DNA of 64,000 bases from an uncultured bacterium (GTDB lineage: Bacteria; Patescibacteriota; Minisyncoccia; UBA6257; 2-01-FULL-56-20): positions 489,493-553,492 of the forward strand of contig OY970175.1 of the NCBI GenBank assembly GCA_963707865.1. Reading direction: 5' to 3'. Position numbers and translations under genes: made by a program. Each line of letters opens with the position of its first letter. The first letter of the stretch is position 1. Positions 2,748-17,416 of this stretch are shown here, piece after piece. A model generated the notes under the pieces. The model did no database searches. It was not told the origin of the DNA and was given only the letters and a program-made list of their open reading frames with translations.

Positions 2748-5192
2748 ATGGAAAAAAGGTTAAATAAAAACTTACTAATAAAAATTATGAAAAAAACAAT
2801 AGTTTTTGTGTCAGTGTTTGCCTTATTCGGAAGCAGCGTAGGTCTTGCGGTCGCCCAGACTACCGCCCTGAGCCAGACACTCATCGCTGACGGCGTTAAG
2901 ATTACTTTCCCGAGCGCCGGATATGAACAGTGGCTGACAAGCAGTTGGGAAGGAACTTCGGTACAGATGGCAGATGCCGTAACGGGGCAGCCCGTGTCGG
3001 CTGGGTATTGGAATATCACGCTTGCATCGCCGGGCCAGACCGAAATGGACCTTTTGGTAAACTCTAATGGTGGCGGATCTGGAATCGTTGGCGGTAGCAT
3101 TTTCATCCCCAGGGCTGGAACATGGATGGCAACCGGGATTGAGCCGGTATCGGAAGGCTCTAGTCCCCTCCCGACCGGCTACACCGCGGGAGAGCTGATC
3201 CCGGCAACTTCAAACGCTCTTACGGTCCTCAGTCCTCCCGCTCCCTATCACGTAACCGTCTCTCCTACGACCTTCGGTGAATATAATGCCGGGGGAGGCG
3301 GTCCCCATATTCCCTCCAGCGAGCTGACCGTCTCCATCACGGATCCATCCGGCAACAGGCCGCCCGATGGTGTATATGGGTTGTGGTTTGGAACGCCCGG
3401 GGGCTCGGATGAATGGCAAATAGCGGTATCGAACGGTGAAGTACCGATATGGAATTGCTGGAATGCTTCGGGAACGGCGTTTCTGGATTATCCGGCTGGG
3501 GAATGGGCAACAGGCGAAATAAACTGTTTCGACGGCAATCCCAATTATGGCTGGGGAGTACTGGGTAATGGCGATACCTACCAAGTTGTTGACGTAACGC
3601 TCCCGAGTAATTCTCCGACCTATGGAAACTACCCAGGTGGACAAACGGTGCCAGCAACCTCCAATAGTTTTCAGGTGGCCGCGACCGTAGCAGGCCAGAA
3701 TCCCAATTCACGGCCCGTTTCCTCGAGTGGCTCCGCTGGCGGCACTAGCAGCGGCGGAACCAGCAACACTGGCGCTGGCTCCTCGCAGACCTCGGGGGCG
3801 ACGACGCTTTCAGAGACTATGAATACGCTCTCGCAATTGCTCGCCAAGCTCTCGCAAACCAACGCGACACTCTACACGCAAGCCCTGGCAATCTTAAACC
3901 AGCTCATAAAACTCTTGGGAGGCACGGGCGGTTCCGTAATCACCACACCTATTACTCCATCGCCAACGCCATCTTCGCCCACGTCCCCTCCCGCGCAATC
4001 GTGTGCTACGACGTATTCCCTCGGCAACCTTGGAGCAAACGCCTACTCGAGCGGCATCGCCTTCGACGGGACCAATATGTGGACATCAAACATGAGCAGT
4101 GACGGTGGCAGCGTGACGAAGATCACGCCGTCGGGCGTCACGACGACGTACCCCATCGGAGCAGGCCTTGCCCCTGAAGGCATCGCCTTTGACGGCACCA
4201 ACATGTGGACGGCGAACTACAGCGGCAGCGTGACGAAGATCACGCCGTCAGGCGCCACGACGACGTATTCCGTCGGAGGAACTCTTTATCGCATTGCCTT
4301 TGACGGCACCAACATGTGGACGACAAACGTAGGCGGTATCGGTGGCAGCGTGACGAAGATCACGCCCACGGGTGCCGCGACGACGTATTCCGTCGGCGCA
4401 GCATTTACTTACCCTGAAGGCATCGCCTTTGACGGGACCAACATGTGGACGGCGAACTATGTAATCAGTGGCGGCGGTAATGTGACGAAGATCACGCCGT
4501 CAGGTGTTGCGACGACGTATCCCATCGGATTATCAGCAAGAGAAAGCAATATCCCTCTTCGCATCGCCTTCGACGGGACCAATATGTGGACGGCGAATGG
4601 GCTCAGCGCCTACGTAAGTAGTGGCAGCGGCAGCGTGACGAAGATCACGCCGTCGGGCGCCGCGACAACGTATTCCCTCGGAGCAGGCATTAACCCTGCA
4701 GGCATCGCCTTCGACGGGACCAATATGTGGACGATGGACGGTAATAGCGGCAGTGTGACGGAGATCACGCCGTCAGGCGCCATGACGACGTATTCCGTCG
4801 GCGCAGTAGGCCCTAGCATCGCCTTTGACGGGACCAACATGTGGACGGAGAGCAGCGACGGCGTGACGAAGATCGCGATCGGCGCTTGTTCACTTTCCTC
4901 GTCCGCCGCTTCAAGCGGTACCACGGCATCGACACCAAGCACTTCATTTAGCTACACCTGGAACACGGACTTGCAGTATGGCATGTACAACAACGCTGAC
5001 GTGAGCGCGCTTCAGCAAGCGCTCACGCTGCAAGGAGTATATAGCGGCCCCGTGACCGGAAACTTCTTGAGCGCGACAGAGGATGCCGTTGTGCTCCTCC
5101 AGCAAAAGTATGGCATCCCCGGGACGGGGTACGTCGGACCGCAAACGCGCGCTGAGTTGAACACGCTGTACGGGAGGGGGCAAGTTCCATAG
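2748..5192 (+). CDS. Secreted beta-propeller repeat protein (NHL/Vgb-lyase-like repeats) with C-terminal peptidoglycan-binding domain (PG_binding_1)
   Basis: Signal peptide MKKTIVFVSVFALFGSSVGLAVAQ (alternative start at 2787). About 8 repeats of ...GIAFDGTNMWT.N...GSVTKITPSG..TTY.... The C-terminus LQQALTLQGVYSGPVTGNFLSATEDAVVLLQQKYGIPGTGYVGPQTRAEL is PG_binding_1-like. Confidence 0.7.
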   Translation: MEKRLNKNLLIKIMKKTIVFVSVFALFGSSVGLAVAQTTALSQTLIADGVKITFPSAGYEQWLTSSWEGTSVQMADAVTGQPVSAGYWNITLASPGQTEMDLLVNSNGGGSGIVGGSIFIPRAGTWMATGIEPVSEGSSPLPTGYTAGELIPATSNALTVLSPPAPYHVTVSPTTFGEYNAGGGGPHIPSSELTVSITDPSGNRPPDGVYGLWFGTPGGSDEWQIAVSNGEVPIWNCWNASGTAFLDYPAGEWATGEINCFDGNPNYGWGVLGNGDTYQVVDVTLPSNSPTYGNYPGGQTVPATSNSFQVAATVAGQNPNSRPVSSSGSAGGTSSGGTSNTGAGSSQTSGATTLSETMNTLSQLLAKLSQTNATLYTQALAILNQLIKLLGGTGGSVITTPITPSPTPSSPTSPPAQSCATTYSLGNLGANAYSSGIAFDGTNMWTSNMSSDGGSVTKITPSGVTTTYPIGAGLAPEGIAFDGTNMWTANYSGSVTKITPSGATTTYSVGGTLYRIAFDGTNMWTTNVGGIGGSVTKITPTGAATTYSVGAAFTYPEGIAFDGTNMWTANYVISGGGNVTKITPSGVATTYPIGLSARESNIPLRIAFDGTNMWTANGLSAYVSSGSGSVTKITPSGAATTYSLGAGINPAGIAFDGTNMWTMDGNSGSVTEITPSGAMTTYSVGAVGPSIAFDGTNMWTESSDGVTKIAIGACSLSSSAASSGTTASTPSTSFSYTWNTDLQYGMYNNADVSALQQALTLQGVYSGPVTGNFLSATEDAVVLLQQKYGIPGTGYVGPQTRAELNTLYGRGQVP

Positions 5193-5231
5193 CCACACCG
5201 CTCTCTCACGTCCGCTGGCAGTGGCAATCTG

Positions 5232-5696
5232 CTAAAACTCTCCGGTGCGAGGAGGGATGTAGTATTGCGTGTTTTTATTTAAGAATTCCAGCAAGAAGTT
5301 GCAGTATTTGGCATATTGAGTGAGCGCCTTACCAACCGAAACGTAAATTTTTTTGAGATCAACGTCATCATATTCGTGTACGAGAACATTACGCAAGCCG
5401 GCCGACGGGGCAATCTCATCGGCGAAGTCGCTCGGATAGACGTTCAGTTCAGCCAGCGTCCGAAAGGTATCTTCGTAGGTTCTCACCTTTTCATTGCCCG
5501 CGCCGAGTTCCGCGATCAGGTGCCGATTAATGTCTATCGCACGCGTAACGATGCGCTCCAAAAGCCGCTCGGTCGCCGCATAGCTCACAGAATCCTTGTC
5601 CAGCGCTTCAAGTGAAAAATGCCCCAAAGGTTCCAACCGCGACAGATCTTCTTGAATGAGCTTGATTTTCCTTACTATAAAATCTTTATTAAGCAT
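5232..5696 (-). CDS. hepT: HepT-family toxin (DUF86, RNase of HepT/MntA type VII TA system)
   Basis: Rx4HxY motif (RNVLVHEY). About 150 aa. Overlaps the upstream mntA by 8 nt. Confidence 0.75.
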   Translation of the reverse strand: MLNKDFIVRKIKLIQEDLSRLEPLGHFSLEALDKDSVSYAATERLLERIVTRAIDINRHLIAELGAGNEKVRTYEDTFRTLAELNVYPSDFADEIAPSAGLRNVLVHEYDDVDLKKIYVSVGKALTQYAKYCNFLLEFLNKNTQYYIPPRTGEF

Positions 5697-6129
5697 GGCG
5701 TTGGTTCAAATACACCTGAAATTTGCGCGCCAGATGTTCCTCCAGCTCCAGCAAAGGCCTGGCATCTTCGTATGCTCTCGTCGCAAACGCTTTAAATTCT
5801 TCGTAATCGGCCGCGTTGCCATACAGCAGTTTCCCGGTGCGGACAACTTCGTACCGAAACAGCGGGTCCACCTTATCCAGGGTTTTCAAGTCCAGATCGC
5901 GTGAACACGCCACCGGGAGGGCATCGCGCAAGGCAACATCAAGATCTAACAACTGCTCAAAAGATATTTCCCTGTATCCCAAAACAGCGATATCAACATC
6001 GCTATCGCTGCGGGAAAACCCCGTGACGAAAGAGCCATGCAGAATGACGAACTTGAGCCTAAAATCCTTGACTACTTTCGCCAGCCGCGCGGTGTTAATT
6101 TTGATTTCCATGACCTTATGATACCGCAT
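5689..6129 (-). CDS. mntA: MntA-family nucleotidyltransferase antitoxin
   Basis: Minimal nucleotidyltransferase motif ILHGSFVTGFSRSDSDVDIAV (GSx10DxD). Immediately upstream of hepT. Confidence 0.75.
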   Translation of the reverse strand: MRYHKVMEIKINTARLAKVVKDFRLKFVILHGSFVTGFSRSDSDVDIAVLGYREISFEQLLDLDVALRDALPVACSRDLDLKTLDKVDPLFRYEVVRTGKLLYGNAADYEEFKAFATRAYEDARPLLELEEHLARKFQVYLNQRHA

Positions 6130-6191
6130 GTTCTATATTTTGCAATCACAAAATCCTCTAGGGGTGGGAATGTGCTATACTATGGGCACCA

Positions 6192-8402
6192 ATGACCCAG
6201 GTTACTCTTGAGGCTCCCCTCTTTGAAGTTATCGGCGCACGTGTCCCGCTCCTTCGGCAGTTGGAAAAGCTCGGCGTCACGACCGTCGGCGACCTTCTCT
6301 ATTATTTCCCGTTCCGCTACGAAGATTTTTCAAAGATCTACGCCATCGCGGACCTTGAACCGGGCCAGCAGGCAACCATCCAAGCGACCATTGAAGAAAT
6401 CTCCTTCCGGCATACCTGGAAGAAGCGGATGAGCATCGTGGAAGCAATACTCGCGGACGCCTCCGGTTCTCTCCGCGCCGTATGGTTCAACCAGCCCTAT
6501 GTGGCAAACGTCCTCAAAGTCGGCCGCCTCGCGAACTTCGCGGGAAAAATTTCGCTTTCCGAAGAGGGCGAAGTGTATTTGAGCCATCCGGCGTATGAAC
6601 TGATACGGCGTCTGCCCAGCACCACTTCTGCATCTGTTGCAGATGCAGAAGTGGTGCTGGGCGGGACCAAACACACCGCGCGGCTCGTACCCATTTACCC
6701 GGAAACGCGCGGCCTTACCTCCCGCGGCATCCGCTTCGTCATGCAATCGGTCCTCCGGCGGAAGCCGCTACTCACGGAGTGGATCCCACCCGCCATCCTC
6801 GCCGAATTCCTCCTTCCCGAGATACGCGAGGCAATCGCATCGGTCCATTTTCCAAAACATCTCGACGACGCCCTCACCGCAAAAAAACGGTTTGCTTTTG
6901 AAGACCTTTTTCTTCTCCAACTTTTCAATCTCCAGCAGAAACTCACACTTTCCCGGGAACAAGCGCCGGCCATCGCCGTCGATATTCCAAAAGTAAAGAG
7001 GGTGCTTTCCGCGCTGCCGTTCACGCTCACCGCGTCACAGAAGAAATCGCTCTGGGAAATTATGCAAGACATGGCGCGGCCACGGCCGATGAACCGCCTG
7101 CTCCAGGGAGACGTGGGCTCCGGAAAAACCGTCATCGCGGCCATCGCCGCGATGGGCGCAGCCGACCACGGATTCCAAACCGCCTTCATGGCACCCACGG
7201 AAATCCTTGCGCACCAGCATTTTGAAACCATGAAGAAACTTTTTCTGGATACCGCGGAGCACGGCATCGCGATCGGCCTTCTCACGGCGAGCGGCGGCAC
7301 CGCCTTCTATGAAAACGGCGTTGAGGCGAAGATGCCGAAGCGCGAGTTGCACGCGAAGGCCGCGCGCGGAGAAATCGCAATCGTGTTCGGCACGCATGCG
7401 CTCATCCAAAAATCAGTGCATTTCAAAAATCTCGGTTTTGTCATCGTGGACGAGCAACATCGCTTCGGCGTGCGCCAGCGCGCCGAACTCTCCGCGAAAA
7501 AGGGCGGGCTCACGCCGCATTTCTTAAGTATGTCGGCGACGCCGATCCCGCGGACGCTTATGCTCACGGTGTTCGGCGATCTGGACCTCTCACTCATCAC
7601 GGAACTCCCGGCGGGCAGGAAACCGATTGCGACAAAGCTCGTCCCGCCGCTTGGGCGGACCGCCGCCTACGCCTTTGTGCGCGGCGAGATCACGCAGGGC
7701 CGGCAGGCATTCGTCATCTGCCCGCGCATTGAACCGGCCGAAGGGCACGAAGGGCAAAAATCGGCCGAAGCGCGAACCGCGAGAAGCGGCGAGCTCAAGC
7801 AAATAAAAACGCTGGAACTAAAATCGGTGAAAGAAGAATATGAAAAATTGTCGGAAAACGTTTTCCCCAATCTCGCGATCGCAATGCTCCACGGCCAGAT
7901 GAAAGCGAAGGAAAAAAATGACGTCATGCGGCAATTCAAGGACAAACAATTTGATATTATCGTCACGACCTCCGTCGTGGAAGTCGGCGTGGACATCCCG
8001 AACGCGACAATCATGATGATAGAGGGCGCCGAACGGTTCGGCCTCGCCCAGCTCTATCAGTTCCGCGGCCGCGTGGGGCGGGGCGAGCACCAATCCCATT
8101 GCTTCCTCATGGCGGATACGAACGCAAAAACCGCGCACGCGCGGCTCAAAGCAATCCTTGAAGCGAAAAACGGGTTTGAACTCGCAGAGAAGGACCTCGC
8201 CCTGCGCGGTCCCGGCCAATTTTTCGGAGAAATCCAAACAGGACTCCCCGACATCGCCATGGAAGCGCTCCGCGATCCGGAACTTGTGAAAACCAGCCGC
8301 GACGCGGCGATCAAGACCATCCAAGCCGACCCTTCGTTAAAAACCCATCCCCTGCTCAAAGCCAAACTGGAACAATTCCGAGACAGGATCCATCAGGAGT
8401 AA
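6192..8402 (+). CDS. recG: ATP-dependent DNA helicase RecG
   Basis: N-terminal wedge region. Helicase motifs GDVGSGKT, DEQHRFGV, SATPIPRT, and FRGRVGRG with the Q motif region. Confidence 0.9.
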   Translation: MTQVTLEAPLFEVIGARVPLLRQLEKLGVTTVGDLLYYFPFRYEDFSKIYAIADLEPGQQATIQATIEEISFRHTWKKRMSIVEAILADASGSLRAVWFNQPYVANVLKVGRLANFAGKISLSEEGEVYLSHPAYELIRRLPSTTSASVADAEVVLGGTKHTARLVPIYPETRGLTSRGIRFVMQSVLRRKPLLTEWIPPAILAEFLLPEIREAIASVHFPKHLDDALTAKKRFAFEDLFLLQLFNLQQKLTLSREQAPAIAVDIPKVKRVLSALPFTLTASQKKSLWEIMQDMARPRPMNRLLQGDVGSGKTVIAAIAAMGAADHGFQTAFMAPTEILAHQHFETMKKLFLDTAEHGIAIGLLTASGGTAFYENGVEAKMPKRELHAKAARGEIAIVFGTHALIQKSVHFKNLGFVIVDEQHRFGVRQRAELSAKKGGLTPHFLSMSATPIPRTLMLTVFGDLDLSLITELPAGRKPIATKLVPPLGRTAAYAFVRGEITQGRQAFVICPRIEPAEGHEGQKSAEARTARSGELKQIKTLELKSVKEEYEKLSENVFPNLAIAMLHGQMKAKEKNDVMRQFKDKQFDIIVTTSVVEVGVDIPNATIMMIEGAERFGLAQLYQFRGRVGRGEHQSHCFLMADTNAKTAHARLKAILEAKNGFELAEKDLALRGPGQFFGEIQTGLPDIAMEALRDPELVKTSRDAAIKTIQADPSLKTHPLLKAKLEQFRDRIHQE

Positions 8403-8696
8403 CTGCTTACTGCCACCACTCAACGATCACTATGCCGTCGGCGCCGCCGTTCGCCGTTACCGTCTGGAAGCGAGGGACGCCCTACGTCAAATATTCCCCG
8501 AAAGCTTTACAATGATAACTGCCGGAACTGCGTTTCGCCAAAAACCGAACGCGGGCGCGCCTTGGTTTTCCTGGGTTCCAGTCCCTGATTGAAAAATCAG
8601 GATAGAGTTCAGCGGCGTTTCTCTTTAATGAAGAACCTCACGCTTACGGGCGAGAAGTTCACGCGCGAATTAGAAATAGCCTGCTTATAAGAACTG

Positions 8697-8851
8697 GAAT
8701 GTTCCCTTCCCATGTACAACGGCAACAACAACGTTGTAGCGACGATATTCGGCAATGGTGGCTGTAATTACGCCAACTACGGCAACGTCGGCAACAACAA
8801 CGGCAACGAGAATAGCTACAACTTCCGTTGCGCGCGCTAGCCCTTCAGCCA
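8697..8851 (+). repeat. DGR template repeat (TR)
   Basis: About 155 bp, ~88% identical to the VR at 10420-10575 when VR is taken on the minus strand. All 18 mismatches are A in TR (AAC codons) against non-A in VR. Includes the shared GC-rich 3-prime end ttgcgcgcgctagcccttcagccag. It lies inside a 42-codon + strand ORF from the ATG at 8712; the + strand stops upstream at TAA 8688 and at the shared TAG at 8839. Confidence 0.85.
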
Positions 8852-10024
8852 GGAAAACAACTCAAACACCCGCGGATAATATTCTTTAATCCAAGGGTGT
8901 TTTTGTTTTGTTTTTAAAATCAAATTATACGTATCGGCATGAACAAGGTGCCCAAAATAAGAAGCGATGGAATTTCTGACATCCGAATGCTCCATTACAT
9001 CGCGGTAATTTTCAAAAAGCCACATCTTATGTTTGAATTTTTTGACTATCCGCCGGCGCACATAAACGCGCCACGGCTTCACGAAATAACCGATAAAATC
9101 CATGCCGTAAGACAATGGTTGCATATGGCATTTTTTTAAATTCAATTCAAGAAAAAGACTTTCTTTTAAAAATACTTTAATCGCGCCGAAAAACTCTTTC
9201 AATTTTTCCTTGTCTTTGTGAATAATGTAAAAATCATCCACATATCTGCCGTAAAATTCGCATTTTAATTTTCTTTTTACGAACTGGTCCAGTTCGTTCA
9301 AATAAACATTGGCGAAAAATTGCGATGTTAAATTACCGATAGGCAAACCAACATCTTCGCGAATACCAAAAAGAGATTTTTGCCTCGGCACGATTTTTAA
9401 AAGGTCGCTATCACCTTTTATTATGTAATTTTTCGTCGGGTCGTAAAAAATTATCGTTTCTGCGAGCCACTGCAATTCATCTTTTATATTTTCGGAAAAC
9501 AAGGTTGATGCTATTTTCTTGAAAACCAATTCGCGCAAAATCCCTTTGTTGATATGCATAAAGAATCCCGAGATGTCGGCTTTCAGATAATACCAATTAT
9601 TGTAATGTTCCGGATCTGAATTTTGAATGCGCCTGATGAATTTTTGAAGCCGCTTCATCGCGAAAAGCGTTCCCTTGCCTTTTCGGCAAGCGTAACTGTC
9701 ATAAATAAAGGATTTTTCAAAATAAGATTCAACTGTTCTGACAAAAAGATGGTGGACAACGCGATCGCGGAAATCGGCGGCGAAAACTTCCCGTATCACC
9801 GGCTCTTTCACGGCAAAGCAAATAGATACGCCCGGAGAATAGGCACGTTCGCGCAAATCTTCCAATAGCCGCCACAGATTATCCTCCAGATTACACTCAA
9901 ACCGCAAGGCGTTGATGGTATTTCTTTTTCTTTTTCGGCAATCAAGATACGCGTAATACAGATTTTCAAACGTGAACAGCGACTCTTGGGGGTCAGGTTT
10001 CATTGTTTTACGCTTTTCAGCCAT
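8837..10024 (-). CDS. DGR reverse transcriptase
   Basis: RT domain with YVDD-type motif (GRYVDDFYII) and the DGR-typical IGNLTSQ ([ILV]GxxxSQ) motif. N-terminal LFTFENLYYAYLDCRKRKR. Adjacent to avd and TR. Confidence 0.9.
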   Translation of the reverse strand: MAEKRKTMKPDPQESLFTFENLYYAYLDCRKRKRNTINALRFECNLEDNLWRLLEDLRERAYSPGVSICFAVKEPVIREVFAADFRDRVVHHLFVRTVESYFEKSFIYDSYACRKGKGTLFAMKRLQKFIRRIQNSDPEHYNNWYYLKADISGFFMHINKGILRELVFKKIASTLFSENIKDELQWLAETIIFYDPTKNYIIKGDSDLLKIVPRQKSLFGIREDVGLPIGNLTSQFFANVYLNELDQFVKRKLKCEFYGRYVDDFYIIHKDKEKLKEFFGAIKVFLKESLFLELNLKKCHMQPLSYGMDFIGYFVKPWRVYVRRRIVKKFKHKMWLFENYRDVMEHSDVRNSIASYFGHLVHADTYNLILKTKQKHPWIKEYYPRVFELFSWLKG

Positions 10025-10347
10025 CCTTCGTTTTGCCTGCTTATCTCCACCAGGATTGCGCTTAGTCTTTCATAATGCTTTAGATCTTTTAGGCATTTCA
10101 GGTCAAAAGCCAAGCGGACCAGCAATTTTAATTTTTCCAGTTTTATCCACAATTCCTCCAGATACTTTCTCTTTTCGCAATGATTGTTCGCGATCATGAT
10201 GAGGGAAGGAATTTCATGGCTAATCTGGCGGATCTCCGTTCCGATCGTGTATCGGTAATCCCGGGAAAAACTTCTTGCCTGCAATTCAATTTCAAGGCAT
10301 AGATCGTATGCTTTCTTGAATATCGGCAAATGATCGTAGCGCGCCAT
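10000..10347 (-). CDS. avd: Avd (accessory variability determinant)-like four-helix-bundle protein
   Basis: A 115-aa basic helical protein (IFKKAYDLCLEIELQARSFSRDYRYTIGTEIRQIS...). It sits between the target gene and the RT and overlaps the RT start by 25 nt. Confidence 0.7.
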   Translation of the reverse strand: MARYDHLPIFKKAYDLCLEIELQARSFSRDYRYTIGTEIRQISHEIPSLIMIANNHCEKRKYLEELWIKLEKLKLLVRLAFDLKCLKDLKHYERLSAILVEISRQNEGWLKSVKQ

Positions 10348-10419
10348 CGTATGATTTTAAAAATTATCAAAGCCTCCGCCCAGCCCAAAAACGGCGGGAC
10401 GGAAATAATAAAATAATCA

Positions 10420-10575
10420 ATCTGGCTGAAGGGCTAGCGCGCGCAACGGAAGGAGTAGCTATACCCGGCGCCGTAGTTGGCGCCGACGGGGCCGTAGGTG
10501 GCGTAATTACAGCCACCACCGCCGAATATCGCCGCTACAACGGCGCTGTTGCCGTTGTACATGGGAAGGGCAGTA
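10420..10575 (-). repeat. DGR variable repeat (VR) at 3-prime end of target gene
   Basis: Reverse complement matches TR 8697-8851. VR carries G, C or T at every TR adenine that differs. Homology extends ~14 nt past the stop codon (cccttcagccag). Confidence 0.85.
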
Positions 10576-11174
10576 TTGCTCGCCCATTCGTTGTTCGTCG
10601 TCATCGTGGATAAACCCCACGTACTTGAGTTGTTGCAGGAAAGTTGCCACTCGAACGGTTCCGGCAGGCGCATATTGTTCTGAAGGCAAATCTGCTTTGC
10701 CTGCGTCCAATATTGGGCGGAACGCTCGCCCGCTTCAATAATGAAACCGACATTGCCGACCGAACAATTGCCGCTGCCGGTGGCCACGCCCGCGCTGCGT
10801 TTGTCGTAGTTCGTCATACCGCCATTGAAACAGACCTCGGTATACGCTGCGGGCGGATTCATCGCCACGATCGCGTTGTTATATATACCGTTGTTGGCGC
10901 TCATTGAATTCGTCGTTGTGCTGATACTGGACAACGCCGCGTTGAGGGTCGACGTGCTGATGCCGGCGTTGAGAACGGCGTTATCAACATACGCCTTCGT
11001 TGCCGCATCGCTCGCCGCCGTAGTCGTCGTGAGCCCCGTGATGCGGCCGGGAATCGTAATCACGCCGCTCACAGAAGCGTTCACCTCGTTCAGGCGGCTG
11101 TAAAGGTAAAGCGCTGCCACGAATGCGACCATCGCGAACGTTACCACGATAAAAACCTTGTACTTCGTTTCCAT
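10434..11174 (-). CDS. DGR target protein, membrane-anchored, C-type-lectin/DUF1566-like fold with C-terminal variable region
   Basis: N-terminal TM helix. The C-terminus ...QICLQNNMRLPEPFEWQLSCNNSSTWGLSTMTTNNEWASNTALPMYNGNSAVVAAIFGGGGCNYATYGPVGANYGAGYSYSFRCAR shows the typical FRCAR end of DGR VRs. Confidence 0.85.
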   Translation of the reverse strand: METKYKVFIVVTFAMVAFVAALYLYSRLNEVNASVSGVITIPGRITGLTTTTAASDAATKAYVDNAVLNAGISTSTLNAALSSISTTTNSMSANNGIYNNAIVAMNPPAAYTEVCFNGGMTNYDKRSAGVATGSGNCSVGNVGFIIEAGERSAQYWTQAKQICLQNNMRLPEPFEWQLSCNNSSTWGLSTMTTNNEWASNTALPMYNGNSAVVAAIFGGGGCNYATYGPVGANYGAGYSYSFRCAR

Positions 11175-11252
11175 TGTTGTGCAGTATTCGTTCTCCTTTA
11201 GTATAGCATCCCCGGAAAGGAGTCCCCTGTGGATATCCGCGGCGAGGTTAGG

Positions 11253-12557
11253 TCAGGCGCTTTCATCAAGAAGCCATTTCCATAACGGTTTGAACGTTAT
11301 GATCTTCCCGTCCTTTTTTACTTCCCGTTCGTCATCCCAAGTCAGCACCGTGAGTTTCCTTGCTTTTAATTCGTTGCTTGCCTCCGTGAGCGCCCGTACC
11401 TCTCGTTCTCCGGCATCTGTATCTTTGGCTTCAAAGCAAACCTGAATCAACTCCGCTATTTCCGTCCCTTTTTTTACGACAAAATCCACCTCGTGATCAT
11501 TGCGGCTTTTATAGTAGAAAAGCTCCTGATTCGGTTTCATCCCGCGCTTCGCGAGCTCCATGAAAACAAGATTTTCCATAAGCTTGCCTTTATCCGGCGA
11601 ATGTTGAATCGCTTTCGCGCTTACGAATCCGTTGTCAACGACATACGCTTTCTTGGGCGACTTTATGCGCTGAACCGACTTTGCGGAGTAGCGGAACAAG
11701 GAGAATATCAAATAGGCTTCTTCCAGATATTTCGTGTACTTTTCCGTCGTCGCTACACTTTTGAGGCCGAGAATCTCCTGCAATTTGCGGAGGCTGTACG
11801 GGTTAGCAAAATTATTCACCAAATGCGATCCCAGGCTGCTTATTTGTGCCGAAAACTTGACCCTGTGCCGCCTTACCACATCCTTGAAAAGCAACGAATC
11901 ATACAGGACTTCCAGATAATCTTTTGGGTCAAGTTTTTCCACTGTCACCTCAGGGAATCCGCCGTTCAGCAAGTACTCTTCTACCAGCCGCAAAAGCTCT
12001 CCGCGCTTTTGAGGCAAGGAGCCATATTCAGAATCAACGGCGAAATTTTTCGCGCGGAGGAATTCGCCAAAATCGAACGGCAATATTTCTATGGGAATAT
12101 GCCTGCCGGTAAGATGCGTGGCAAGTTCCCGCGAAAGCAGATGGGCATTGGATCCGGTAAGCATCAGGTTGTATCCCTCTCGGTGTAAGCGATTGGCGAA
12201 CAGTTCCCAGTTGGGCAGATTCTGAATTTCATCAAAGAGAATAGTTTTTATGTTGCCGTAGGCGGCGTGCAATTTTTTCATGAGATCGTCGGTCGCTATG
12301 CCGCCGGCGGCAGCCAAAACCTCATCGTCAAAATTGAAGTACATAAAAGGCCGCTCTTTCAAAAGCATGAGTGAAAAAACAGATTTGCCTGCACGCCTCG
12401 GCCCTAAAACGACTTTTATCAACCGCGAATCCAGCCACTTCTTGCCGAAACTTTCCTTTGTTCTTGCCACATACCGCAAGCGCAGAAGCTGCTCCTTTTC
12501 CAGCTTTTGCTTTAAAACTATGTCATCAAGCATAATTTTTGTAGTGGTCAAAAACAC
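11253..12557 (-). CDS. AAA-family ATPase with DUF4143 C-terminal domain
   Basis: Walker A VLGPRRAGKS and Walker B ILFDEIQ. Architecture matches the archaeal-ATPase/DUF4143 family. Confidence 0.7.
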   Translation of the reverse strand: MFLTTTKIMLDDIVLKQKLEKEQLLRLRYVARTKESFGKKWLDSRLIKVVLGPRRAGKSVFSLMLLKERPFMYFNFDDEVLAAAGGIATDDLMKKLHAAYGNIKTILFDEIQNLPNWELFANRLHREGYNLMLTGSNAHLLSRELATHLTGRHIPIEILPFDFGEFLRAKNFAVDSEYGSLPQKRGELLRLVEEYLLNGGFPEVTVEKLDPKDYLEVLYDSLLFKDVVRRHRVKFSAQISSLGSHLVNNFANPYSLRKLQEILGLKSVATTEKYTKYLEEAYLIFSLFRYSAKSVQRIKSPKKAYVVDNGFVSAKAIQHSPDKGKLMENLVFMELAKRGMKPNQELFYYKSRNDHEVDFVVKKGTEIAELIQVCFEAKDTDAGEREVRALTEASNELKARKLTVLTWDDEREVKKDGKIITFKPLWKWLLDESA

Positions 12558-12575
12558 GTTATTTTGACCACTACA
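12541..12575 (+). promoter_or_regulatory. Perfect 13-bp inverted repeat (gtagtggtcaaaa / ttttgaccactac) at the start of the ATPase gene, putative operator
   Basis: Read directly from the sequence. A further tggtcaaaa copy follows. Confidence 0.3.
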
Positions 12576-12637
12576 GTTAGTATACTGGTCAAAATACAGA
12601 ATGCAAGCTGGAACTTAAACCTACCCGACCCCCTCAA

Positions 12638-12916
12638 TTAGGACCCCTTGGCTTTCAGATAATTTTCCACCTCATAAATATCCCGAATCGGCGCATCAAT
12701 TTTTTTATGCGCCGCGATTGCTTCCACTTGGCGGATATTGAGTGCATTGCCCTCAATCTTCGTAGAGGCGTGCGTCATGCGGATTAAGGCCTGTGTGCGC
12801 AAACGAAGTTCCTGTTTCGGCAATAACCGGGCGCGTGCAATAACCGCTTTCGCCTCAGCGATTGCGGTGAGCATTGTGACGATTTTGTTGCTCAACTTGT
12901 ACCGCGGATGGAACAT
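12638..12916 (-). CDS. Fic N-terminal domain fragment (Fic_N only)
   Basis: MFHPRYKLSNKIVTMLTAIAEAKAVI...STKIEGNALNIRQVEAI... is Fic_N-like. It lacks the HPFx[DE]GNGR core. It lies divergent to an intact fic gene. Confidence 0.55.
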   Translation of the reverse strand: MFHPRYKLSNKIVTMLTAIAEAKAVIARARLLPKQELRLRTQALIRMTHASTKIEGNALNIRQVEAIAAHKKIDAPIRDIYEVENYLKAKGS

Positions 12917-12984
12917 ACGCTCATTATATCGCTCAGTGCATAATCGCGCAAGAATCGCGCAAACGTTCGAGGACGGTAACTTTA

Positions 12985-13023
12985 TAAAGTTCGCCCGCTT
13001 TGCACAACTTTATAAAGTTTGGT
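12985..13023 (+). promoter_or_regulatory. Two copies of the 14-bp palindrome aactttataaagtt separated by 12 bp, putative operator
   Basis: Self-complementary 14-mers at 12985-12998 and 13011-13024, in the divergent region between the Fic_N fragment and fic, overlapping the fic start. Confidence 0.35.
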
Positions 13024-13686
13024 AATATAAATTATGCTCATGAATATGCGTCAAAAACTGGAAATTATTCAAAAAATGCTGGCATTGAAGGCAGCACGCT
13101 CACCGAACCGGATACGGCAGCGATTCTTTTTGACAATGCCGCACTGCCCAACAAAAGCTTAACCGAGCAATTGGAGGCGAAAAATCATCAAACAGCCCTG
13201 AATTACCTCTTTGATCATATTGCAAAGAAAGAAAAGGTTGACGAGGGACTTGTGCGCAAGCTCCATAGCATTCTCATGAATGGCGTCCGGCCGGACGCCG
13301 GCAGGTACCGCACCCACGCCGTAAGAATTACCGGAGTTAATTTGCCGACCGCCAATTACGCGAGCGTCCCTAAATTAATGACAGAGGTAATGAGCAAGAT
13401 TACTGAAAAAGAAGATGTCATTGCATTGTCCGCCGACGTTCACGGCGAATTTGAGCAGATTCACCCATTTTCCGATGGCAACGGACGTATCGGCCGCCTC
13501 CTTATAAACGCAATGTTACTTCAAACGAATCTCGCCCCTGCAATAATCCGTGAGGGACAAAAACGGCTTTATTACGCATATCTTTATAAGGCACAGACCA
13601 AAAACGACTACAGCCAATTGGAAAACTTTCTCTGTGAGGCGATCGCGGATGGATTCAAAATTCTGGAGCGTGCGAATGTGACGTAA
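13000..13686 (+). CDS. Fic/Doc family protein (AMPylase-type)
   Basis: Fic core motif HPFSDGNGRIGRLL. An upstream IEG-containing N-terminal region is also present. Confidence 0.8.
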   Translation: MHNFIKFGNINYAHEYASKTGNYSKNAGIEGSTLTEPDTAAILFDNAALPNKSLTEQLEAKNHQTALNYLFDHIAKKEKVDEGLVRKLHSILMNGVRPDAGRYRTHAVRITGVNLPTANYASVPKLMTEVMSKITEKEDVIALSADVHGEFEQIHPFSDGNGRIGRLLINAMLLQTNLAPAIIREGQKRLYYAYLYKAQTKNDYSQLENFLCEAIADGFKILERANVT

Positions 13687-13711
13687 TGTAGCGGCCCTTA
13701 GCTCACGTTGG

Positions 13712-14377
13712 CTATGGTGCCGCGGGCTCCGTTGCGGACCCTGCTATGAGGTCCACCTTCCCCTTGAAATCGCCGGCGCTTGCAAGACCGAACCACGTGC
13801 TGTCAATACTCCCCGCCGGGTTATTCCCTAAAACAAGATAGGCGTCGGCCGGAATGACGCCGCCCTGATCACCCACGTAGAGCGCAAGCATCCGGCGCGC
13901 GGCATCCGACACGAGATAGGTTTCCCCTTGCGCGTTCGCAAGCGGCGCGCCGTTCACGAGGATGTGCCACCTTGAACCGCTCTTTTGGAACGCGAGCATA
14001 TCCCCCGGCACTCCCATCACACTTTTTACAAGATCCTCCGCCCCGCCGTAATCGTAATCAACGATGTCCCCGCGCGCCACCGCGTGGCAGGCGTAATAAT
14101 TCTCCAAAACCGTGATATGCTCCCCGTCAGAGAGAATCCCCTCCATGGAAGTCCCGCGCACCGTCATAGTTTCCTCCCGCACCGCGCAATCCGCGGTTTG
14201 CGGAATCATCGCGGCGGCCGATGCCGCACTCGCCGCCGCGGCCGAAAACAGCGCGTCTCTGCCGTTTTGAAGCACGAATGAATTTCTGAAAACAACCAAG
14301 GCAACGAGCGCGAACGCCGCGCCCACCGCGATGCCGAGCGCGCTGCATTTCGTTGCTGATTTAAAAAATCCGCGCAT
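13712..14377 (-). CDS. Signal peptidase I (S26 family)
   Basis: GTSMEGIL (GTSMxPTL box) and an N-terminal TM helix. Last gene of the pilin/GT2 cluster. Confidence 0.65.
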   Translation of the reverse strand: MRGFFKSATKCSALGIAVGAAFALVALVVFRNSFVLQNGRDALFSAAAASAASAAAMIPQTADCAVREETMTVRGTSMEGILSDGEHITVLENYYACHAVARGDIVDYDYGGAEDLVKSVMGVPGDMLAFQKSGSRWHILVNGAPLANAQGETYLVSDAARRMLALYVGDQGGVIPADAYLVLGNNPAGSIDSTWFGLASAGDFKGKVDLIAGSATEPAAP

Positions 14378-14403
14378 GAAAAATCTGCCGCATGAGCCGA
14401 GCG

Positions 14404-15861
14404 CTACGGCTTCACGGGAACCGAGATTCCCGGCGTAATCGCATCATCGGAAGTGTTGGGCCATTGCTGTGAATCAAACCGCGGCGCGGTCAGGCGGTAG
14501 CTCACTTCAAGCGAACCCGGAGCCGAAGCCAGCGACGAAGCCGACGAACCGGGAACGGCGTATACGGTCAGGCGGTCGTTCACGGCATCCTTCTCGTACC
14601 AAGCGTTGCCGTCAAACGCCGGCGTGAGGAGCACCGACAAATTGCTCAATCCTTGGCCGAAATCCGTCACCTGCGAGAAGAGCCAGAGGTCGGAGCCCTT
14701 TTTCAGGTTGCCGAAATCAATCACCGCCTTCCACGTGCCATTTGCCGCTGTACCATCTGCCGCTGTGCCGTTTGCCGCCGGTTGCAGCTGAAGCACACCC
14801 GTCGTTTCTTCTTTCTCCCCCGTCATCCCCGCGCCGTAGGTCGCATATTTCTCCCCGCTGATGCTGTAGATCGGATCGTAGGTGCCCGCGGTGATCTTGC
14901 CCGCGCCGCCGCCGACGACCACCGTGTCGGCCGCGGCGGTGCCGAAGCGCGCCGTTGTGGCGCCGGCGCTTGCAACGTCAAGCTTATACGACGGCGGAGT
15001 CGTCGTCCCTATGCCAATGCCGACATTGCCACCGCTTTGAATAAATAAATTGACAGTGCCTCCCTCGGTGAACTCAATGCCATTTCCTGCTGCAGTGCCA
15101 AGTCGTGTATTATCGTCAGTGAATTTTCCAAGCATATTGCGGATAGTTCCTTCAACGTCATACCCTTGAATATATTGGCCATTATCCAAAAGAATCCCGC
15201 CGCCACTTACTTGCAATTTCGCCGCAGGCGCCGTCGTCCCGATGCCGACGTTCGTGCTGCCGTTCACAAAATTAATGATGCCGTTCAGGGATGTCCACAT
15301 GTTGGTCTGGTTTCCCAGGGTGAAATTCTCCGCCGTGGAAGAAGGGTAAACGCTTGAGTCAAAGGTCGCCGCGGAAACCCTCGCCACGGATGTCTGGAAC
15401 AGCTCTGAAAACGCCTGGAGGGGATTTGACGGGTTATAGGTCATCGTGAACGCGACGCTCACCGTATCGTGCGCCGGAGGGTTTGACCGCTTCGTAAACG
15501 ATAGATTGGTGACTGCCACTTTTGGGGAAGTGAGCGCCTGCAGCGCGCCGCTCCCCTGTTGGAGGTACACCGTGCCGCTCGCGCTCACGGTAAAGTACGT
15601 GGGGTCGGACGAACTGGCCGCCATCCGCAATTCCAACGTCGTAGAGGACGTGTCCGGCGACATCTGAATCAAACTGGACTGCTGAACTTGAAACTGGATT
15701 TGCTGCAGGAGAAACTGGCTTTGCGCCTGCACTTCCGCGGCTGCGGTCTGGCTCGTCTGCACCCGCGTTATGGTAACGAATGTGCCCACGGCAACCACCA
15801 TGACCGCGGCAAAAATCGCCGCGTACAGCAAAAGCTCAACTATCGTAAAGGCCCTGTTCAT
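14404..15861 (-). CDS. Type IV pilin-like protein with large C-terminal domain
   Basis: Prepilin N-terminus MNRAFTIVELLLYAAIFAAVMVV (class III signal/N-methylation motif). 485 aa. Confidence 0.7.
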   Translation of the reverse strand: MNRAFTIVELLLYAAIFAAVMVVAVGTFVTITRVQTSQTAAAEVQAQSQFLLQQIQFQVQQSSLIQMSPDTSSTTLELRMAASSSDPTYFTVSASGTVYLQQGSGALQALTSPKVAVTNLSFTKRSNPPAHDTVSVAFTMTYNPSNPLQAFSELFQTSVARVSAATFDSSVYPSSTAENFTLGNQTNMWTSLNGIINFVNGSTNVGIGTTAPAAKLQVSGGGILLDNGQYIQGYDVEGTIRNMLGKFTDDNTRLGTAAGNGIEFTEGGTVNLFIQSGGNVGIGIGTTTPPSYKLDVASAGATTARFGTAAADTVVVGGGAGKITAGTYDPIYSISGEKYATYGAGMTGEKEETTGVLQLQPAANGTAADGTAANGTWKAVIDFGNLKKGSDLWLFSQVTDFGQGLSNLSVLLTPAFDGNAWYEKDAVNDRLTVYAVPGSSASSLASAPGSLEVSYRLTAPRFDSQQWPNTSDDAITPGISVPVKP

Positions 15862-15916
15862 CTCTTGCTCTTATTGTACCACCCGGCGCCCTTTTTGCCT
15901 GTGGACAAGCTTCTCC

Positions 15917-17416
15917 CTACCCTCGCCGTCCTTTGGGCGTTACCCAGAAGCCCAAACGCCACCGCCCGCCGAGCATGAGCCGCGTTTGCGCCTCCAGCCC
16001 GGGAAAGGCGCCGAAAATAATCAGCGTGAGCGGCATAAGCGCCCACTGGAGAAGATACACGAGGTAATCGTGCCATCGGAGGCCGCCGGACGACTTCGGC
16101 GGCAGAAGGAGAATGGCGAGGATCGCGGAACTCGCGATACCGATCATGGAAAGCGAGACGATGAACCGCGTGATCCGTGGCAGGTTATAGGAAAGCAGCG
16201 TGTAGTTGAAGTGAGCACCGCCGAGGAAAAGCGGCAGCCAGCCCAGAGCGAAAATCATAAGCGAGTTCGTGGCCCATGAATGAAACCCTTCAATCACATT
16301 GAACGTCCAGTAACGTTTTTTCGCGGGCGGAATCGCAGGATCGCGGCGGAATCCCGTGAGCATATAAGGAATGTTCTCGCAGCCCCATCCCCACCGCCGC
16401 TGCTGGCGGTAGAGATTTTTCATCGTGGCCCAAAGGGTCGGCGCCACGTTCGCGTCCATAGAAATCGGATACAAAAGCGGCTCCACGCGGAAATCGCCGT
16501 GATAGTGGAGGTAACCCTGCCAGAAAATCCGCGAATCCTCGGACACGATGTCTTTCTGCCAGAAACCGATGTCCAAAAGCACCCGGAACGGAATGGATTG
16601 CGAAGAAAATGACGTCAGGCGCTCCGGCCGTGATTGTTGCATCATCTGCCAGAAGGTCGTGGAGAACGCGACGACGCGGGCAAGTGCCGGCGCCTCGTGG
16701 ATATTGTTCGTGAAAAGCGGGATCGGCTGGTAAATGGCGCGCAGGCGATTTCCGGCGTTCAAAAACACATAGGTGAGCCGGCCGAAATATTCCGGGAAGA
16801 CCTGCGTGTCCACGTCAAATACCGACACGAGGACATTTTCATACCGCAATTTCAACGGATCAATGAGCGCTTCTTTTGCGCGGAGCGCCGCCCACGTTTC
16901 GTTGGAGCCCTTGCCGGGAATCTCGCCCGGAAGGTCCGCCGGATGCACCGTGAGAAGGAAGCGGAAGAACCGCGCGCCGAATTCTTCTTTGATCCGCTCC
17001 CCCACCGCCCGCGCCGCCTCTCCGCCGCGCGCCTCCACTGCGAGCACGACCAATAATTTTTCTTTCGGATAATGCGCTTCCGCGAGCCGCGCGAAGCTTT
17101 CGCGCACCACCTCATACGGCTCGTGGTACATCGGGAAGACGACTACATGATACACGTCTTCCCATGAAATATCCTTCGTAACATCCTTTCCCGCCTCGGA
17201 AAGCTTCTCGCGCCAATTGACATCCATATTACGCTTCATCGCGGAAAACGACGCGCGGAGATGGAGCGACAGATACACGGTCTTCAAAAGCCAATAGATA
17301 TCAAAGAGGATGATGAAAACGGAAACCCACACGGGCAGGAACCGCGAAAGCAAAACCATAAGGACGATCGTTGCCCACGCAAGACCGCCGGGAAGGATCT
17401 CAAAAAACCGTTTCAC
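15917..17416 (-). CDS. Processive family-2 glycosyltransferase (cellulose-synthase-like, multi-TM)
   Basis: GT2 core with a QRRRW (QxxRW) motif. N- and C-terminal TM helices. Confidence 0.7.
   Translation of the reverse strand: MKRFFEILPGGLAWATIVLMVLLSRFLPVWVSVFIILFDIYWLLKTVYLSLHLRASFSAMKRNMDVNWREKLSEAGKDVTKDISWEDVYHVVVFPMYHEPYEVVRESFARLAEAHYPKEKLLVVLAVEARGGEAARAVGERIKEEFGARFFRFLLTVHPADLPGEIPGKGSNETWAALRAKEALIDPLKLRYENVLVSVFDVDTQVFPEYFGRLTYVFLNAGNRLRAIYQPIPLFTNNIHEAPALARVVAFSTTFWQMMQQSRPERLTSFSSQSIPFRVLLDIGFWQKDIVSEDSRIFWQGYLHYHGDFRVEPLLYPISMDANVAPTLWATMKNLYRQQRRWGWGCENIPYMLTGFRRDPAIPPAKKRYWTFNVIEGFHSWATNSLMIFALGWLPLFLGGAHFNYTLLSYNLPRITRFIVSLSMIGIASSAILAILLLPPKSSGGLRWHDYLVYLLQWALMPLTLIIFGAFPGLEAQTRLMLGGRWRLGFWVTPKGRRG

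Follow-up and report, generated by a model that had tools for sequence, protein, structure and literature searches.

We identified a diversity-generating retroelement (DGR) in a 64-kb window of contig OY970175.1 (assembly GCA_963707865.1), from an uncultured member of the Patescibacteriota. All positions are those of this window. The genes for the reverse transcriptase (RT), the accessory variability determinant (Avd) and the target protein are on the minus strand, and the template repeat (TR) alone is on the plus strand. The locus is a genuine DGR: it encodes an RT of the DGR clade and an Avd, its TR and variable repeat (VR) differ only at adenines of the TR, and the VR lies at the 3' end of the target gene. 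We propose that it is a functional DGR of a small clade within the Candidate Phyla Radiation (CPR; Patescibacteria), in which the template is a separate, convergent transcription unit on the plus strand. We give this reading a probability of about 0.75.

A repeat search retrieved only one long inverted repeat from the DGR region, the TR/VR pair. It contained two arms of 149 nt, given as about 155 bp in the sequence-only reading. The arms are 88% complementary with 1,569 nt between them. In a base-by-base comparison all 18 mismatches fall at plus-strand adenines of the TR arm (A to G, 8; A to C, 7; A to T, 3). With 28% A in the TR copy, the probability of this by chance is ~1e-10. The template RNA must therefore be plus sense, and 8704 to 8852 is the DGR template repeat with its sense strand on plus. 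The ORFs and these mismatches bear out the strands first assigned to TR, RT, avd and the VR-bearing target. It was also right that the TR cannot be a sense 3' untranslated region of the avd-RT mRNA, since adenine-specific mismatches demand a plus-sense template.

The VR spans the final 45 codons and the stop codon of the target open reading frame (ORF). No second VR was found in the 64-kb window beyond 10422 to 10570. The TR is convergent with the RT gene, as had been claimed, and the two overlap tail to tail by 16 nt (8837 to 8852). The stop codon of the RT and that of a plus-strand ORF inside the TR share the palindrome CTAG (8837 to 8840). This 42-codon ORF (8712 to 8840) had been pointed out before. 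It exists, but it has no significance of its own, as it is a by-product of the TR copying the last codons and stop of the target. The relatives carry the same pseudo-ORF within the TR. The three longest stretches over which the TR and VR arms match exactly are 31, 24 and 20 nt. The last 31 nt of the TR (8822 to 8852) are GC rich and identical to the VR. The A's there are unaltered, as would be expected of an IMH/IMH*-type 3' end, and the last substitution is at 8821.

The RT contains the motif IGNLTSQ, which is invariant across the RT alignment. IGxxxSQ is the hallmark motif of DGR RTs. The best match among solved structures was 8ub7_A (328 aa, "Reverse transcriptase"; 4.8e-39), presumably bRT, the DGR enzyme of the Bordetella phage. 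Group II intron RTs matched at 4e-09. The Avd is above the Pfam cut-off (Table 1). It also matched NCBIfam DivGenRetAVD at 5.7e-15 with 55.5 bits, under the curated cut-off of 80. The target protein had no sequence match in Pfam, NCBIfam or PDB.

Contigs from nine related lineages were retrieved from NCBI, ENA, JGI and Logan assemblies (L081, L082-84, L085-87, L092, L094, L095/96, L097 and L098). Their RTs are 56 to 77% identical to that of the window. In a protein search the RT belongs to a large DGR group of the CPR/Patescibacteria, with homologues named as Wolfebacteria, Falkowbacteria and other CPR groups. Within it there is a tight RT subclade at 70 to 77% identity, whose named members are Wolfebacteria and Falkowbacteria, and one outlier at 56%. 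A metagenome scan with the RT alone retrieved only four distant loci and no new members of the clade.

The layout target(VR)-avd-RT-(TR) is common to the nine relative lineages in independent assemblies. Every contig with enough sequence contained a TR homologue, 73 to 79% identical to the window TR, opposite the RT and abutting its 3' end. The VR is upstream on the RT strand wherever the target was on the contig and the pair was detected (L081, L082-84, L085-87, L096 and L098). These five relatives have 18 to 23 TR/VR mismatches, 89 to 100% of them at A sites. Non-A differences number 0 to 2 in each, and 0 of 18 in the window. The relatives' TRs have diverged by 21 to 27% from the window TR, yet their VRs follow their own TR at nearly all non-A sites. 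Each VR thus appears to have been rewritten recently from its own TR in each lineage. By this argument the layout is functional, or was so until very recently, in several lineages independently.

The TR-sense strand of the ten lineages (window included) was aligned for the analysis of promoter, leader and hairpins. Homology of the window to its relatives starts at 8507, directly before a putative -10 box, TACAAT. At the aligned position 8 of the 9 relatives contain a TATAAT-like hexamer (TATAAT in four; TATACT, TATGCT, TATTAA and TAATAT in one each), with an extended TGn in five of these eight. The box sits 4 to 6 nt ahead of a conserved yTGCCnGAA box. The TR therefore appears to have its own promoter, with a predicted start near 8520. 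A plus-strand promoter in the spacer after recG had been offered as one of two options, and the comparative data favor it, both through the -10 box and through the covarying leader that follows.

The leader appears to be a folded RNA of about 180 nt. In the proposed structure (leader and 3' hairpin), 95.7% of cells are standard pairs, compared with 35 to 49% when the partners were slid by 1 to 3 columns. It contained 12 compensatory pairs. None of 500 shuffles reached 12, and the slid controls gave 0 to 4. With 28 G-U cells against a single A-C cell in its helices, the fold is that of the plus-strand RNA and not of its complement. A hairpin noted before at 8581 to 8600 is real. It is H3, one helix of this leader. 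A further helix, H4 (8683 to 8692), was dropped, since it would have too small a loop in the window. Segment H1 is nearly invariant and is predicted to pair with the GC-rich 3' end of the TR (8832 to 8838). Analogy with TR:Sp pairing in the Bordetella phage DGR makes this duplex a candidate for a template:primer or positioning role.

The leader is conserved in spite of different upstream neighbors. The gene upstream of the TR unit is a co-directional recG in the window and a divergent Peptidase_S26 gene in five relative lineages. The conserved block is thus linked to the DGR and not to a neighbor. We had also considered it as the leader or promoter of the Peptidase_S26 gene. This was dropped, as the block is kept in the window without that gene and the G-U asymmetry favors the TR-sense strand.

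A covariance model of the leader (R1) matched only clade members among 96 sequences searched, which included other DGR loci. The leader cannot therefore be linked to other architectures. Rfam contained nothing comparable to it, and a permissive threshold gave only spurious miRNA-precursor matches on the 3' hairpin. A scan of viral contigs with the leader pattern gave three chance matches, without RT or avd and with poor model scores. The window has its own insertion of about 32 nt in the loop of H6 (8636 to 8667). It holds a weak minus-strand terminator-like hairpin in a generic scan (8655 to 8636). L096 has leader insertions of its own (about 2240 to 2330), one of them a perfect small hairpin at the H6-loop site (TTTGTTAAA/TTTAACAAA). 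Variable loop insertions are what we would expect of a structured RNA.

The hairpin 3' of the TR, H5, lies with its U-tract antisense to about codons 372 to 395 of the RT. It folds at -21.2 kcal/mol. It contained compensatory changes in 4 of 14 pairs, and nine G-U cells. Where the amino acids are identical, the codons are identical too in a fraction of 0.80 to 0.83 at RT codons 372 to 395, and of 0.34 to 0.78 in the other codon windows that had data. The RT ORF of L092 and L096 ends right after the WIK motif, before the 5' arm of H5, and the arm is still conserved there as noncoding sequence with compensatory changes. The codon-identity peak and this persistence where noncoding indicate that H5 is selected in its own right. 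It may be a terminator-like 3' end of the TR RNA, an Avd-binding stem-loop, or both. Handa et al. found an Avd-binding stem-loop downstream of the TR in 207 of 278 Avd-type DGRs, and described as general features of DGR RNAs a duplex at the 5' edge of the TR and a stem-loop just 3' of it (bioRxiv 10.1101/2023.10.23.563531). H5 matches the position of that stem-loop. H5 as a terminator of the RT mRNA was dropped, because it would halt transcription before the RT stop codon.

Table 1. Features of the DGR region, in window positions.
Feature	Position	Strand	Evidence or remark
Putative -10 box (TACAAT) of TR-RNA promoter	8508-8513	+	Conserved position; predicted start near 8520
Conserved structured 5' leader of TR RNA, ~180 nt	8520-8703	+	RNAalifold, pair counts, covariation
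Leader segment H1 (GGCGCGC)	8554-8560	+	Predicted pairing with TR 3' end (RNAalifold); nearly invariant
Helix H2, long-range, closes onto TR 5' edge	8573-8582 with 8693-8707	+	RNAalifold
Hairpin H3	8584-8588 with 8597-8601	+	RNAalifold
Hairpin H6	8617-8622 with 8672-8677	+	Found by eye; register checked
Template repeat (TR)	8704-8852	+ (sense)	149-nt repeat; 18/18 mismatches at A in TR copy
Hairpin H5 and U-tract	8863-8903 and 8900-8915	+	Antisense within last ~25 RT codons
DGR reverse transcriptase gene	8837-10024	-	RVT_1, 1.8e-17; IGNLTSQ motif
Accessory variability determinant (bAvd)	10000-10347	-	PF22296, 1.7e-12, above its cut-off
GC-rich hairpin downstream of VR	10375-10403	-	DNA fold; preceded by VR-specific motif ATTGATTATTT (10411-10421); putative role
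Variable repeat (VR)	10422-10570	-	3' end of target gene; TR/VR homology extends 12 nt beyond stop codon
Target gene, 246 aa	10434-11174	-	Hydrophobic N-terminal segment; C-terminus encoded by VR

Several points weigh against a separate, active template unit. The case for the promoter and for the terminator is made from consensus and conservation arguments. A generic promoter and terminator scan called neither a plus-strand promoter nor a plus-strand terminator at the TR unit. It missed the -10 box, and also H5, whose loop of 11 nt exceeds the limit of the scan. The shuffle statistics overstate significance, as the nine relatives are few and mutually related. H1 is paired in 94% of cells with only one compensatory change, so it is nearly without covariation, and GC-rich segments pair readily. 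In each of two strains, the VRs of three contigs do not differ. Support for ongoing diversification is therefore indirect, from VRs that follow their own TR at nearly all non-A sites in the window and the five paired relatives.

The TR RNA could instead lack a promoter of its own in this genome and be made by read-through from recG. The recG gene (6192 to 8402) is on the same strand 300 nt upstream, and the generic scan called no plus-strand terminator between it and the TR. Against this, the -10 box and leader are still conserved in the window, and in the five lineages where the upstream gene is a divergent Peptidase_S26 that gene cannot supply the RNA. We consider this explanation unlikely for the window genome. 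Read-through from recG could add to the TR RNA here, but it cannot explain the relatives.

The sequence-only reading had offered a flip of the avd-RT segment by homologous recombination between TR and VR. The cassette would alternate between the present layout and a co-directional TR-avd-RT one, and the flip could be a switch or the way in which the layout arose. The inverted repeat around avd-RT is as that idea needs it. The RT stop and its last five codons also lie inside the 31-nt stretch identical in both arms, and the RT ORF would therefore survive a flip. However, no flipped isomer was retrieved among the ten lineages (16 contigs, built with different assemblers). Stretches of identity are short, broken by 18 mismatches that change at each homing event. 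In L098 the segment between TR and VR holds two unrelated genes, which would have to be carried too. The conserved unit of promoter, leader, TR and terminator fits the present orientation. There is no recombinase ORF in or beside the segment, and RT and avd are the only family-matched ORFs between the repeats. We regard the flip as very improbable.

Also very improbable is a decaying or inactive cassette, with a TR inverted by rearrangement, no longer used, and the repeat kept as a relic. The VRs that do not differ between samples of one strain, and the missing plus-strand promoter call, would fit it. A relic would gather non-A differences, however, and there are almost none in the window or in the five paired relatives in spite of their TR divergence. 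Every lineage has intact ORFs for RT and avd, and the noncoding flanks of the TR are conserved with covariation. An assembly artefact, with the segment between the repeats placed in the wrong orientation, is very unlikely: inverted repeats can confuse de Bruijn assemblers and the window is from a metagenome-type assembly, but the longest exact repeat is under typical final k-mers and read lengths, the same junctions recur across contigs from different assemblers (judged by names) and four data sources, and the unique sequence on either side of the TR is conserved and continuous with it.

With a convergent template unit, the DGR would work as follows. The target, avd and RT would be expressed from the minus strand. 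The TR RNA would be transcribed separately on plus, from about 8520 to about 8910. It would contain the folded leader, the TR, and then the hairpin and U-tract. RT and Avd, made from the opposite strand, would bind this RNA in trans and copy the TR into adenine-mutagenized cDNA. The cDNA would then replace the VR 1.6 kb away. H2 at the TR 5' edge may act like the known "stop" duplex for cDNA synthesis. H5 may bind Avd, end transcription, or both. The pairing of H1 with 8832 to 8838 may position priming just 5' of 8832, which would fit 8821 as the last substituted position, with the A's 3' of 8822 unaltered. Since the RT mRNA has to extend to 8837 and the TR RNA to about 8903, the two transcripts would overlap antisense by at least 67 nt (8837 to 8903). 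We speculate that this overlap could be regulatory.

In the reconstituted Bordetella DGR, the TR-RNA and bRT-Avd act in trans on targets of either orientation, and what counts for editing is the orientation of the target relative to replication (PMC12875486). The orientation of the TR should therefore not matter for the homing step. The plus-strand GC skew is negative over 4001 to 16000 (-0.05 to -0.08). It is a weak signal and its sign changes elsewhere in the window. If it reflects replication, the minus-strand target and the fork run in the same direction, which is reported to favor DGR editing (PMC12875486).

A bolder version is possible but doubtful. The unit may be a free-standing DGR noncoding RNA of about 390 nt, in which the priming partner and stop duplex, 3' of the TR in the Bordetella phage element, have moved to the 5' leader. 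Its obligatory antisense overlap with the RT mRNA might couple or limit the levels of RT and template, as a built-in regulator of mutagenesis.

For comparison we surveyed 80 genome loci with RTs 38 to 51% identical to that of the window. A script was used to find repeat pairs with A-biased mismatches. In most loci the TR is just upstream of the RT on the same strand. It is opposite the RT in 11 loci, and in all 11 the VR is on the TR strand. In 9 of these 11 the TR is just downstream of the RT, and the RT converges on a target-TR unit (including Avd where it was detected on that strand). Of the 57 other loci that gave a TR/VR pair (from L001-L080, L089 and L090, the set including two from the metagenome scan), none had its TR opposite its VR. 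The window clade thus shares the convergent RT/TR junction with a wider, mostly CPR set, and differs in having the target and avd on the RT strand.

The CPR loci with an RT convergent on target-avd-TR or target-TR-avd include at least L005, L016, L022, L031, L037, L069 and L080. They share with the window a TR opposite the RT. In L022, L037, L069 and L080 the TR is also tail to tail with the RT, within 47 to 120 nt of the RT match, and is directly followed by a strong hairpin. The "inverted" DGRs of Schillinger et al. 2012 (DiGReF Group 4, PMC3521204) likewise have TR and RT on opposite strands. In that group and in these CPR loci, the VR and target (and Avd where detected on that side) are on the TR strand. 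Group 4 is defined by TR, VR and target all opposite the RT, whereas the window has its VR, target and avd on the RT strand. Only the TR is inverted here, so it forms an inverted repeat around avd-RT with the nearby VR.

Pseudogulbenkiania sp. NH8B (PMC3521204) also has a TR and a VR on opposite strands, which implies a diffusible cDNA or ribonucleoprotein and no need for a shared orientation. There the two more distant of four VRs are opposite, and the two nearer VRs are on the strand of the TR and RT. In the window the only VR seen is opposite the TR, and the layout is fixed across the clade. [quoted passage not shown] VRs on the strand opposite the TR were noted as rare by myDGR (PMC6602519).

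BPP-1, the Bordetella phage element, has the order target-avd-TR-RT (architecture B1, PMC5758913). It shares with the window an Avd and a bRT-like RT (8ub7_A being the best match). It also shares a TR/VR pair of about 150 nt with adenine-only differences, a VR located 3' in the target, and a GC-rich 3' end free of substitutions. It differs in that the window TR is neither between avd and RT nor on their strand, and there is no TR-RT spacer. The conserved noncoding RNA of the window is mainly 5' of the TR, and its short 3' part is antisense in the RT coding region. The window also has the order of architecture B2 (avd-RT-TR) as defined in the figure legend of Wu et al. 2018 (PMC5758913). In that legend B2 is without parentheses, which places the TR on the RT strand. 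The window TR runs the other way, overlapping the 3' end of the RT, so its orientation is not that of B2.

A TR opposite the RT and a TR opposite the VR are each already recorded as rare (2012, 2018 and 2019), so the novelty implied at first does not hold in that general form. We found no published description of an inversion of the TR alone that overlaps the RT 3' end and is fixed across a clade, nor of such a TR with a promoter of its own, a folded 5' leader and a terminator hairpin embedded in the RT gene; the supplementary tables of the surveys (48 variants in Wu et al.) may list one. The arrangement is unusual but not unprecedented, and the general point is known.

Other features were observed at the ends of the repeats. 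About 12 extra nt at the TR 3' end (GCCCTTCAGCCA in the window, 8841 to 8852) are also present in two relatives, L092 and L095/L096. The window VR has the same 12 nt (GCCCTTCAGCCA, 10422 to 10433), which is why the TR/VR homology passes the target stop codon. The RT tail of the window (...FSWLKG) extends beyond the end of the aligned relatives. An AT-rich motif, (G)ATTGATTATTT, lies just 3' of the VR in the window and five relatives (L081, L082, L085, L094 and L096) and is absent after the TR. It is a candidate mark separating the recipient VR from the donor TR, because the last 31 nt of the two are identical. The GC-rich hairpin after the VR is present in the window and L098, and not in the other relatives examined.

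The avd-RT core has a low GC content. It is 38.7% for the RT and 42.2% for avd, compared with 56.8% for the target, 57.4% for recG and 52.4% for the whole window. This is consistent with acquisition from a lower-GC lineage. L085 contains a Peptidase_S26 gene and an AAA_14/DUF4143 ATPase directly beyond the TR (6464 to 8591). In the window an AAA_14/DUF4143 gene (Pfam) is upstream of the target (11253 to 12557, minus strand), and an ORF at 13712 to 14377 (minus strand) is signal peptidase-like by eye. The positions of the Peptidase_S26 and AAA_14 genes suggest local rearrangement around the cassette. Two relatives encode N_methyl (type IV pilin-like) proteins near the DGR (L085, 1 to 422; L098, 1428 to 1976). 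The window ORF at 14404 to 15861 (minus strand) has a prepilin-like FTIVELL segment at its start, seen by eye. This hints that the DGR targets of the clade are cell-surface proteins.

The known DGR mechanism is unchanged by this finding. The clade is a natural case in which the template RNA must be made opposite the strand of every protein component, and must work in trans. A trans-acting template agrees with recent reconstitution work on the TR-RNA. The forced sense/antisense overlap with the RT mRNA is a possible regulatory route. The locus also defines a compact candidate DGR RNA of about 390 nt, with promoter, covarying leader, TR and terminator hairpin. In vitro, it could show which parts of the RNA are required by RT-Avd in a DGR that lacks a TR-RT spacer.

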